Source of the DNA: Octopus vulgaris
Lineage: Eukaryota
DNA: 64,000 nt
NCBI GenBank assembly: GCA_951406725.2
Contig: OX597828.1
Coordinates: forward strand, 69,502,001-69,566,000
Reading direction: 5' to 3'
Part shown: piece after piece, positions 5,357-57,885 of the stretch
Layout of the letters: each line of letters opens with the position of its first letter
How positions within the stretch are numbered: the first letter of the stretch is position 1
Position numbers and translations under genes: made by a program
The notes under the pieces: generated by a model
What the model saw: only the letters and a program-made list of their open reading frames with translations
Told to the model about the DNA's origin: nothing
Database searches by the model: none

Positions 5357-5464
5357 AATTTTTACAATTGTTTCGACGCAGTCTTATACCTGTAATACAT
5401 TGATGAGATGTTGGGCAATCATTAACTTGCATCTAAGGTTTAGGATGCGTCTCTTCGGGGGATT
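5357..5464 (-). ncRNA. Degenerate minimal hammerhead ribozyme motif
   Basis: CCGAAGA-GACGCA-(long loop)-TGCGTC-GAAA-CAATTG-TA; stem I poorly paired. Confidence 0.45.
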
Positions 5465-6019
5465 GTTTAAATAAATTCTTCGTTAGATCCTGTCACCATT
5501 TCACTCAGTTTGATAATGTATACGCAGCATGATTTTAAATAAAAGGGGCCGTTAATTCTATTTCCATTTCACTTATCTATTTGTATAATTTCTATGGATA
5601 ACATGGAATTCCGTATCATATCCAGTAGCAAAAGTATTCCCTCTGTATGATGACATCAGGTAGCCAATAGCAGCGGACGAGCTTTGCATAGCATTCTACA
5701 AGATGTTTATCCGGATCTTATTTAACTGTGTGTGAGGTGGAGGAGGTGAACATGTAAAGAGAAACATGGGGCTTGCTGCTAAGAAATGGTAATTGTATAA
5801 AGTGGAAACGGTGTTAAAGGTACTTGATGCAGTAAACCGAGAGATGTTAATTAGCTAAAATTACAATTTAATGAGGAGATTGATTATTTTCTAATTTACT
5901 AATTCCGGTAAAAAAAAAAGGCAAGGGAGACAAAGCTGGGATTTAAATTTTTCTAATTGAATATAGAGTAAGGAGAAGGAGAGGGTCAAGAGGTTGTTCT
6001 TGTAGGTGGTTGCTGTTGT

Positions 6020-6400
6020 TGCTGTTGTTGTTGAGCGAACGGTCTTCGTCCCAGAGCTCGTAAGATGGGAGAAGTCCGAAACGTGGTCCTTTGCTATTCG
6101 TAGGACCCGCAGAAGAGAAAGCAGGTCAACACCCGACACCGAGAGCATCGACGGAAGAATGAATGCGCATCCAGGCTCAGCGGTTGCGTAGGAAGTCGGG
6201 GACAAGAAACAGGAAGAAAGAGTGAGAGAAAGTTGGAGCGAAAGAGTACAACAGGGGTCGCCACCAGCCCCTGCTGGAGCCTCGTGGAACTTTATGTGTT
6301 TTCGCTCAATAAATACACACAACGCCCGGTCTGGGAATCGAAACCGCGATCCTCCGACCGCGAGTCCGCTTCCCTAACCACTGGGCCATTGCGCCTCCAC
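6020..6400 (-). mobile_element. tRNA(Arg)-like-headed SINE, tail type A
   Basis: Head TGGCCCAGTGG...GGTTTCGATTCCC; same head and tail at 21367-21985; ends in (CAA)n. Confidence 0.8.
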
Positions 6401-7579
6401 TGTTGTAGGTGGTGGCGGCGGTGGTGGTGGTGGCGGCGGCGGCGGCGATGGTGTATTTGAACCCCACGTCAATCCCCGTCGACCAAACCAATTCCAGTCG
6501 AGACCGTCCGCTCTTTTCCCCCCATTTGAACAGAACACACTTCATCGTTATTCAATGTCTCCCCTTTTTAAGACTGTAGGGTGTGAGTTGAGGAAGAATT
6601 GGTTGTTATTTCTAGCCAGTCGGGGGTTTTCTTGCTGATTTGCTGACCTCGTGGTGGCAAGGTACGATGCAGTGGTCCTCAGCGGCGATGATCTCATGGT
6701 AGCAAAGTATGACTTGGTGGCCATCAGCAGTGCTGCCCTTCCCCACACCTAGGGGAAATTTCTTAGTGACCCAAACAGCATTATAACACTGTGACCACTG
6801 ACATACGTTACACAGCATTTGTAAATTGTCGTTGCTGTTGAGCACCAGGTGAGTCATTTTATAATTAAAAGCACCTTCGTTGTTAATAAACTCTATTCCA
6901 AATTTATTTATCATAGCTCTTTGAAAATAAACATTATTATATAAGATATATTTTTCTATCCGATGAAGGGCCTAATTTTTTTTTCTTGTTTAATATAGGT
7001 CTTATCCCTTTAGGGTATACAAACTTTCCCCAAATTTACGATGCCAAGATCACGACACCACGTGGTCAAACTTACAAAACATATTTTACAAGGTATGTCC
7101 ATGGGTCCCGACGAAAAGATTAAGAGACCTAGACTCCTCTTTAAAAATTTCTCACTTTTTGTTCAAAATCTTTTTGCTGAAAATTTTTTTGAAATATCTG
7201 CCCGTCAGATATCCACGGGCCCTTCCTTGGTTTTCCTTGACCCAAACCCCGGGTCGTTACCCCGACTAAGTTCCATTCTTTTGTGCCCTGCCTTCACGGG
7301 AAATGGGCTTAATTCAAAACAGCATTATCGATGCGCACCACTATCAACCGTGTTAAATATTTCGTATTCATGTTTACAGTGTTTATGATTTTACCGAGTT
7401 ACAAAGGAGCAACCCGGATATGAGAGTGACTTCCCTGTCAGAGCTGATTGTTCGGCCAGAAATCGTCAATGATCACACGAAAATCAACATGGCGTGTCCG
7501 AAATAATGAGACAGCGACAAACACAATAGAAAACAAAAAATAACTTTTATGCTTGACTGTAAAAGTTTACGGTTGTTGG

Positions 7580-7643
7580 ATGTTTATTATCATAAGAAGG
7601 ACCGGATTGTCTGGCAACATCAACACTGGACCACCTTCTTCCG
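7580..7643 (+). other. Candidate host exon ending in donor CCG|GTAAGG
   Basis: Donor consensus in a CpG-retaining region, CAACATGGCG (YY1-like) at ~7485; ATG at 7580 gives a phase-1 end. Confidence 0.25.
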
Positions 7644-56232: not shown

Positions 56233-56268
56233 ATTTTACGTTTCGAGCCTATGCTCTTCAACAGGAAG
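56233..56268 (-). ncRNA. Hammerhead-like motif, CUGUUGA variant
   Basis: CTGTTGA-A-GAGC(ATAG)GCTC-GAAA-CG-TA; same element family as 44393-44582; weak stem I. Confidence 0.5.
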
Positions 56269-57011
56269 GAACAAATGGAAATAAACATCGAGAGTATAAA
56301 CAGAAAATAAACAGAGAGATATATGTGTGAACATGTGTATGTATGTATATATATATATATATATATACACACACACACACACACACACACACACACACAC
56401 ACAGGTGCAAGTATTGCTTTATGGGTAAATTATTCATTTGTTGATCACAGGATTTCTGGCTCAGTCACATGACATGGTACCTTGAGCAAGAATCTTCTAC
56501 TACAGTCTTGGGCTGACCAAATCTTTATGAGTGCATTTGACAGACAAACAGAAACTAAAAGAAGCCTATCAATTATGTATGTATGTCTGTCTGTATGTAT
56601 GTATGTATGTATGTATGTATGTATGTATGTATGTATGTGTGTATGTGTCTATATATGCATGTATATATAGGTATGCCTAGGTTTCAGGTTATTTTAGCAA
56701 ATAAAATAATTTGCTTGTCAAATCCTCATCAGTAACCGTGATTTCTTCTTAGGATATATATATATATATATATATATATATATATATATATCCTAAGAAG
56801 AAATCTTGTGGAACAGACGTTATTTTAATGAGATATATATTGTAAATACCTGAGGAGACATACCTGCTCTGACGGATGCACCTAAGCCAGATGTTCAGTA
56901 TTCCACCTATGAGGGATCAATGCTAGATGGATTGAAACAATTCTAGTGATCAATAGGCATTCTCACATTTTCCATCTCTCTCATTAACCATATATATAAT
57001 ATATTTATATA

Positions 57012-57284
57012 TTTTTTTCTCTGTAGTTTCAGCTTAGAATTGTGGCCATGCTGAGGCACCTCCGTTTTACTACATTGTTATTACTGAGAGCCTCCTCCAC
57101 TATGTGAGACTTGGTGAAGAATGGAGTTTGATGTAGCTACCCTCATTTGCACCTCTTGCTGTGAGGTAGGTTCATCTGGGACTCTCAACAGGAAGAGGTC
57201 CAGCCTTGATTTAAAAACACCTACATCTACTTTGTGCAGGTTCCTCAGGCTCTTTGGGAGAATATTAAAAAGCTGTGGGCCCCA
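57012..57284 (-). mobile_element. CR1-group LINE 3' end
   Basis: GPQLFNILPKSLRNL..VGVFKSRLDLFLLRVPDEP..ATSNSILHQ plus short 3'UTR. Confidence 0.75.
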
Positions 57285-57808
57285 ACACCATGGTTCCAGG
57301 TTCAATCCCACTGTGATGGCACCTTGAGCAAGTGTCTTCTACGTTAGCCTGGTATTGGTAGCCAATATATATATATATATATATATATATATATAAAATT
57401 TGATGGAAACTGAAAATCAAATGGAAATTGTAGTTGTGATCCCCATGCTGGTGGCAGATAAAAAGCACCATCTGAATGTGGCTGATGCCAGTGCCACCAT
57501 GACTAGCTTCCATGCCAGCAGCATGTAAAAAGCACCAACCAATCATGATTGTTGCCAGCCCCATCTGGTCCCTGTGCTGGTGGCACGTAAAAAGCACCCA
57601 CCACACTGTTGGAGTGGTTGGTGTTAGGAAGAGCATCCAGCTGTAGAAACACTGCCAGATCAGACTGGAGCCTGGTGCAGCCCCCTGGCTTCCCAGACCC
57701 CGGTTGAACCGTTGAACCCATGCCAGCATTGAAAATGGACGTTAAACGAGGATGATGATGGAAATATAGCATTAACATAATTTATTATCCGCAAAAATCC
57801 AACGTATT

Positions 57809-57885
57809 CTCTTACAGCTGTTTCGGTTTAGCCTAAAAGATTAAATTACGTAAATCATAATATTAGGCAAAATCTCATCAGAGGG
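57809..57885 (-). ncRNA. Minimal hammerhead motif with canonical core
   Basis: CT-CTGATGA-G..GCCTAA...TTAGGC..C-GAAA-CAGCTG-TA-AG. Confidence 0.7.

Follow-up and report, generated by a model that had tools for sequence, protein, structure and literature searches.

Which elements carry a crowd of hammerhead ribozyme motifs through a piece of DNA in which the expected mobile-element gene is missing? The question is posed by 64,000 nucleotides (nt) of the Octopus vulgaris genome (assembly GCA_951406725.2, contig OX597828.1, positions 69,502,001 to 69,566,000, forward strand), here called the window, in which eleven minimal hammerhead motifs had been annotated. Minimal hammerheads in the terminal repeats (pLTRs) of metazoan Penelope-like elements (PLEs) were described in 2014 by Cervera and De la Pena (PMC4209133). 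The initial annotation read the motifs as one dispersed system of several non-autonomous PLE-like or retrozyme-like families. We consider it highly probable that they are minimal type-I hammerheads in the 3' terminal repeats of PLEs and in short non-coding elements likely borrowing Penelope enzymes, and that the insertions they mark are separate, for the most part single and in decay, and lie near (TA)n. The annotated type, minimal type-I hammerheads of the PLE kind, is supported by this analysis. The idea of a single system did not hold up, since the insertions appear independent. Two families (18700 and 39511) do fit the non-autonomous description, while two others, with four of the eleven sites, are truncated 3' ends of autonomous PLEs.

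Hammerhead motifs in the window and in the genome

The order stem I, core, stem II, GAAA, short palindrome, UH and returning strand of stem I is present, as annotated, at all eleven positions (5357, 14229, 15285, 17293, 17927, 18700, 22470, 39511, 44484, 56233 and 57809), four of them on the plus and seven on the minus strand. A tolerant type-I descriptor with A at core position 6 gave eight matches against a mean of 0.08 and a maximum of 1 in 100 block-wise dinucleotide shuffles, and nine against 0.13 when A or U was allowed at this position. A stricter descriptor gave five against 0.017 (60 shuffles), and one with a relaxed core five against 0.73, with up to 4 in a single shuffle. The control proposed with the annotation, a comparison with dinucleotide shuffles, therefore places the motif frequency far above expectation. 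The nine matches comprise six annotated sites (14229, 17293, 17927, 18700, 22470 and 44484) together with 27361, 7108 and 4728. The other five annotated copies fail the descriptor through decay: the first three base pairs (bp) of stem I are unpaired at 5357, stem II is weak at 15285, stem I is reduced to 2 bp and the CG has become TG at 39511, and stem I contains mismatches at 56233 and 57809. Stems I and II do pair in relatives of the 5357 and 39511 copies and, as had been claimed, stems that differ between families still pair. The annotated core CYGANGA...GAAA...UH is found at nine sites; 44484 and 56233 read CTGT[A/T]GA instead and carry U at position 6, a family-wide trait that had escaped the annotation. 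The palindrome of stem III and loop 3 is CAGCTG, CAATTG, CG, CTCAGAG or TCCGGGA; 22470 and 39511 have TG in place of the CG of most of their relatives.

The surroundings agree with the annotation. A (TA)n run lies within 200 nt of 8 of the 11 sites compared to a background of 28% (p=0.003), and five PLE protein queries gave no tblastn match at E<0.01 in the window, in line with the annotated absence of a PLE open reading frame (ORF). An Rfam scan of the window listed no hammerhead family among the best 150 of 287 matches; these were mostly microsatellites matching miRNA families, all under the gathering score.

The window is part of a 2.8-Gb genome, in which we compared exact counts of family patterns with reversed-pattern controls. 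Four patterns together have 33,976 exact matches against 15 for the controls: 4,819 against 2 for the CAGCTG family of 17293/17927, 22,286 against 0 for the GAGC-GCTC family of 44484/56233, which is the most numerous family sampled, 3,361 against 13 for the CAATTG group of 18700, and 3,510 against 0 for the 39511 family. Six of these matches fall into the window where 0.78 would be expected, about 8-fold over the genome average, so that the annotated density of about one motif per 6 kb is right for the window and only local. Chance matching in AT-rich, repeat-rich DNA is practically negligible as an explanation. The excess over shuffles, the thousands of family copies against 0 to 13 in controls and the pairing of differing stems refute it for the annotated sites, while in its favour are the descriptor matches at 7108 and 4728, which are assigned to no family, and the four matches reached by relaxed-core shuffles. 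The match at 7108-7198 (+) has a stem II made of an A/T run, and that at 4728 sits inside an L1-type ORF. GAAA-palindrome-UH halves, possibly truncated tails, occur at 42791 (-), 43028 (-) and 15368 (-) with no recognisable core upstream.

Many minimal PLE hammerheads per genome are ordinary and already published. As in the earlier survey (PMC4209133), the motifs are type I, stem I is short, A9 is often followed by an unpaired base, and stem III is palindromic; they number thousands per genome in many families, are mostly single or in opposite-strand pairs a few hundred bases apart, and few sit in full elements. What differs is the stem II domain of 46-77 nt in several window families, and a U6 core shared by a whole family, for which the available part of that survey holds no counterpart, its sole core change being U3-A8. 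The apparent novelty lies in the U6 family and in a family resembling a short interspersed element (SINE). Neither a family-wide U6 core nor a hammerhead-bearing SINE of the PLE type from a cephalopod was found in the literature searched; figures and preprint supplements, which lay outside that search, may bear on the novelty of the former. In the portions available, an octopus repeat annotation lists active PLEs with no mention of ribozymes (PMC13282606), and a squid genome paper gives Rfam hammerhead counts only (PMC6962438).

Two families in the tails of Penelope-like elements

The CAGCTG motifs lie in two arms, an inverted one at 17071-17462 (-; C3 17336, H17 17297) and a direct one at 17747-18102 (+; C3 17931, H17 17970). 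A GIY-YIG-like frame was seen upstream of the motif in 2 of the first 30 CAGCTG loci. When the search was anchored on the endonuclease, 17 of 30 loci had the motif on the same strand 0.9-1.4 kb downstream, and the window arms match these endonuclease-linked tails at 69-86% (17747-18100). A repeat search returned the inverted pair 17201/17805 amid output dominated by simple repeats, and by eye the tail appears to resume at about 18340-18443, past an unrelated short repeat. The endonuclease has a CxCX5C linker in 18, CxxC before the conserved E in 26 and CxH after the conserved N in 27 of 30 loci, all of which are marks of the Hydra clade (PMC8557442). The translations have a single cysteine before YIG and no CCHH cysteine pair; the reverse transcriptase (RT) motifs RWK and DKT were not seen in context in five stretches, which may not span that region. 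A single truncated Hydra-type insertion accounts for both window copies, 17293 being its inverted and 17927 its direct arm. Published Hydra-clade PLEs (PMC8557442) share the three endonuclease marks, the missing CCHH pair, the hammerhead in the tail and the (TA)n flanks; the octopus family differs by its 3' untranslated region (UTR) of about 1 kb, and the copies sampled look older, with many stops. In the 30 loci and at 17931 and 17336 in the window, stem II of this family opens with A opposite a variable A, G or T, not with the usual G-C pair.

The U6 motifs at 44394-44580 (-; core CTGTAGA, C3 44515, position 6 at 44512, H17 44488) and 56144-56305 (-; core CTGTTGA, C3 56264, H17 56237, stem I partly decayed) belong to 3' ends of a Neptune-type PLE. 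A Neptune-type endonuclease lies upstream in 4 of 30 motif loci, and in 26 of 30 loci found with the endonuclease the U6 motif follows 330-843 nt past it. One locus, L157, holds a stop-free frame of 966 aa with RT and endonuclease, flanked on either side by a U6 motif, the two being 4,380 nt apart; in L162 two such motifs are 4,510 nt apart. RVT_1 passes the Pfam cut-off in both L157 and L158, while GIY-YIG reaches E=0.006 in L158, under the cut-off, with none reported for L157. A single ORF contains the RT followed by a C-terminal GIY-YIG, and its translations read CSRPRCRTC in the linker, CISCSLC..H..H (CCHH), DKG and, as the GxKF/Y-like motif, GLRF. Neptune-clade PLEs (PMC8557442) likewise combine RT and GIY-YIG in this order in one ORF, with GLRF and DKG motifs, a CX4CxxC linker and CCHH-type residues, and they have a hammerhead in both terminal repeats and (TA)n flanks, as seen in L157, L158 and L162. 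The U6 core is where the octopus family departs from them, and its clade is assigned from motifs, not from a tree. Four ORF copies differ by only 3-6 nt in 1,650, three of them with the exact U6 motif, and we conclude that the U6 family was recently active.

The core itself varies little. A canonical A6 occurs in only 414 of the 22,286 exact matches, and descriptors that require CUGANGA would thus miss about 98% of them. For a sample blind to the core, 90 copies were collected with an anchor on the downstream side of the motif and 78 were kept; position 6 is T in 76 of these. N7 is free (A 20, T 33, G 10, C 15), and H17 is A in 59, T in 17, C in 1 and G in none. Flanks diverge by 19% compared to 4.7% for core and stems. 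Among the 25 non-CpG columns of core and stems none has a variant common to at least five copies, while 26 of the 61 columns of the downstream flank do (p=2e-5). Contigs of four public runs under four organism labels also vary at positions 7 and 17, while any alternative letter at position 6 stays under 3%; one run gave only 14 contigs and one may come from the species of the window itself. A family with A6, represented at 22366-22580 (-; family C1, about 220 nt, C3 22500, H17 22474), has stem II and some tail sequence in common with the U6 family and is its likely sister, so that U6 is likely derived. In this sister family (L226-L250) copies start at nearly one base, and several share an identical extra stretch of 8-9 nt, which suggests a defined 5' end and a length of about 225 nt.

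PLE hammerheads are poor cutters, one of them depends on protein, and cutting was dispensable for insertion in vitro. We find it likely that the U6 family still holds its ribozyme fold under selection, and likely that U6 makes a slowed or protein-dependent ribozyme. The contrary view, to which we give somewhat less than an even chance, is that of a dead ribozyme, either retained because its structure binds or positions the protein of the element, or inactivated too recently to have decayed. Changes at A6 lower activity strongly (PMC3088659, PMC7151607, PMC9901934): single changes in the CUGA turn have low activity in a mutational scan (PMC9901934), and A6C reduces the rate in Mg2+ from 0.3 to 3.55e-6 per min at 0.3 mM (PMC7151607). 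Given this loss, the motif may be kept for a non-catalytic role. PLE insertion in vitro does without cleavage (PMC11167929), and the Naiads thrive without a hammerhead motif (PMC8557442). Two features of our own data also weaken the case for a fold under selection: columns were taken as independent in the test, though they go back to few subfamily branches, and 12 of the 90 sampled copies had been set aside because the ribozyme region was missing. What argues against a dead motif is that subfamily variation is confined to positions free in catalysis (N7, and H17 but never as G), that the flanks have diverged far more than core and stems, and that other letters stay below 3% at position 6 in the public runs, with the limits of two of these runs given above. 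On balance, a ribozyme that is still live, if slowed or gated, seems to us slightly more probable than a dead structural motif. A pyrimidine at position 6 of a natural hammerhead has a precedent in the A6C motif of phage Bcep176 (PMC3088659, PMC7151607). That case is a single phage locus with C, while the octopus motif, a putative ribozyme, has U and exceeds 20,000 copies, and the eukaryotic element carrying it was recently active. With recently active, ORF-intact elements, an altered core, a likely A6 sister and variation only at catalytically free positions, the U6 family offers a natural test of what PLE hammerheads are for.

Non-coding families and their movement

The 18700 family consists of 534-nt units in arrays of up to 13 in a row, with one type-I hammerhead per unit and often an inverted arm. 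Eleven units of one array (L124) are 99.4% identical and have no frame longer than 72 aa. The unit has 32% GC and is predicted to be 67% paired, with a circular minimum free energy of -150.5 against -103 +/- 5 in 15 mononucleotide shuffles. The window copy at 18546-19075 (-; C3 18771, H17 18707, CAATTG, 7-bp stem I) is a monomer about 78% identical to the young arrays, with a short inverted arm at 19022-19075. A search of public runs with the unit listed no RNA run, a result that carries no information on expression. The family fits, by these features, the retrozymes without long terminal repeats (non-LTR), whose tandem units are likewise non-coding, low in GC and predicted to pair with themselves, each holding a single type-I hammerhead (PMC7229834; 10.64898/2026.07.22.740005), and for which mobilisation by PLEs has already been proposed (the same sources). 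Its unit is longer than the 150-450 nt of PMC7229834 and within the 51-972 nt of 10.64898/2026.07.22.740005. It differs by a minimal in place of a canonical motif and by arrays with PLE-type inverted arms and two fixed end sites.

The single unit of the 39511 family is composed of an A-box/B-box-like head, a trinucleotide run, a short body and the hammerhead motif. The window copy spans 39305-39600 (+), with a decayed head at about 39305-39382, (AAT)n(AAC)n, the body, the hammerhead (C3 39515, H17 39550, a 2-nt deletion in stem I) and a tail. We take the two boxes of the head, which by reading start 45 nt apart, to be A and B boxes by their likeness to the box consensus. Of 30 copies anchored on the motif 18 have the head, in 23 of 30 anchored on the head the motif comes after it, and an inverted arm lies upstream in 20 of 30 copies. 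A tRNA origin of the head found no support: ARAGORN called none in 23 loci, relaxed calls were inconsistent, and there was no Rfam tRNA match. The nearest known case is that of the schistosome elements SM-alpha and Sj-alpha (PMC6765202), which also join an RNA polymerase III (Pol III)-type promoter head to a hammerhead, are non-coding and have thousands of copies. The octopus copies are dispersed singles and inverted pairs, not tandem multimers, carry a minimal motif, and have PLE-type inverted arms and two fixed 3' ends. A segment upstream in L397 and L430 was rejected as parent of the SINE tail, being the 3' end of another non-LTR element. This 3' end abuts the SINE trinucleotide run in both loci and lies between head and body in L430.

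Six families (those of 5357, 14229, 15285, 22470, 27361 and 57809) are multi-copy, several with inverted arms, and have no consistent ORF within 1.5 kb in 15-25 loci each. In the window, family H is represented by an old tail at 5325-5536 (-; C3 5458, H17 5363, a 77-nt stem II domain, CAATTG), in which stem I is broken; relatives are 75-80% identical and pair ATCAC with GTGAT. A decayed copy of this 5357 family was annotated near 56905; it exists, at 56819-56993 (+), with its core at C3 56850 and GAAA at 56934. Family E lies at 14157-14370 (+; C3 14233, H17 14262, CTCAGAG), preceded by an inverted, 5'-truncated arm without core at about 14157-14215; the short inverted arm recurs in 32 of 40 scored relatives. 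Family F occupies 15241-15493 (+; C3 15291, H17 15337, TCCGGGA) with a partly decayed stem II. Family J spans 57755-57996 (-; C3 57881, H17 57813), with CAGCTG, a stem II domain of 50 nt and, at 57937-57996, an inverted arm that is short. The annotation had missed the old family G copy at 27340-27539 (+; C3 27361, H17 27433, CTAG) and a decayed, unassigned hammerhead-like motif (56732) at 56674-56738 (-), with CCTAGG and C at U16.1. A third endonuclease (L069) was rejected as parent of the unassigned families, as most of its 30 loci carry another motif, of the U3-A8 type, and no window stretch matched its tails in at least six loci. In this third PLE family (L461-L490), which lies outside the window, the hammerhead follows about 66 nt past the endonuclease stretch in most of 30 loci, with the U3-A8 core TTGAAAA and stem III CCGG.

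The ends of insertions give a hint of how copies are made. In the 534-nt family 18 of 18 3' alignment ends lie 150-199 or 280-309 nt past the cut site, in family E 20 of 29 lie 30-49 nt past it, and in the SINE family 110 of 149 lie at 40-69 or 80-99 nt, 27 more being the edge of the trinucleotide run; the bin at the cut site holds at most one end per family. Counts for families A and B were discarded as confounded by (TA)n in the query. Since ends are at fixed points past the cut site and not at it, copies likely derive from uncut or re-ligated RNA. In one published PLE, hammerhead cleavage depends on protein, insertion in vitro goes on unhindered with catalytic mutants, and RT initiates at internal positions (PMC11167929). 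Following that work, the element endonuclease would nick at (TA)n, and RT would initiate at an internal position past the hammerhead, with uncut or re-ligated RNA as its template, and so copy an intact motif. Premature stops and inversions by a second primer would leave the short direct and inverted arms that carry the motif. The palindromic stem III, for which we calculated self-duplexes of -1.7 to -11.1 kcal/mol for intact palindromes, would let two motifs of one tandem transcript pair and cut, so that lone copies are probably inert. Slower cutting by U6 would leave more uncut template. The inverted arms and two fixed ends of the 534-nt arrays and the SINE-like family can be seen as genomic signs that non-autonomous hammerhead elements move by PLE enzymes. 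The boldest version, in which the U6 ribozyme still cuts, slowly or gated by its own protein or a metal ion, under selection for a brake that spares template, and in which a Pol III-headed SINE with a hammerhead tail moves by Penelope and not by long interspersed element (LINE) enzymes, is well short of probable as a whole, and we offer it tentatively.

Would non-coding elements suffice for everything? It is improbable that all motifs are non-autonomous, retrozyme-like families spreading as self-cleaved circles. The missing PLE ORF in the window, the predicted strongly self-paired tandem arrays of the 18700 family and the sharp 5' end of the 22470 family fit such a view. It is refuted for 17293/17927 and 44484/56233, whose motifs lie in the terminal repeats of RT and endonuclease elements (at both ends in L157 and L162), and the other patterns are dispersed singles or inverted pairs with direct repeats rare among the first 100 matches listed for each of the CAGCTG, GAGC-GCTC and 39511 patterns. 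The attribution to PLE tails and to elements borrowing PLE enzymes has several observations to contend with as well. No sense-strand motif lies within 1.5 kb in 13 of the 30 Hydra-type endonuclease loci, and the six families without an ORF link gave only scattered, inconsistent PLE matches. The protein query behind the U6 link took in read-through 3' UTR, so that copies with a tail were favoured. The folds judged 'active-like' form only in part in 534-nt and long-stem copies and have energies far higher than the predicted minimum, and for the 534-nt and SINE families, which likely moved by PLE enzymes, the enzyme partner is putative.

Other features of the window

A long RT frame, labelled L1/Tx1-type by reading, runs at 2770-5010 (-), its 5' end at (ATAG)n beside the 5357 motif. 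A 414-aa frame with CRLC, RHD and RPD motifs at about 52883-54127 adjoins (TTA)n; we take it to resemble the 3' end of an R4/Dong-type element, although these coordinates gave no clean translation. An abundant short repeat with internal tandem units of 62-68 nt, presumably of the octopus type, occurs at 14711-14855, 25006-25183, 25787-26005 and 50691-50835. At 51446-51732 lies a 136-nt inverted repeat with arms 96% complementary around a 15-nt spacer.

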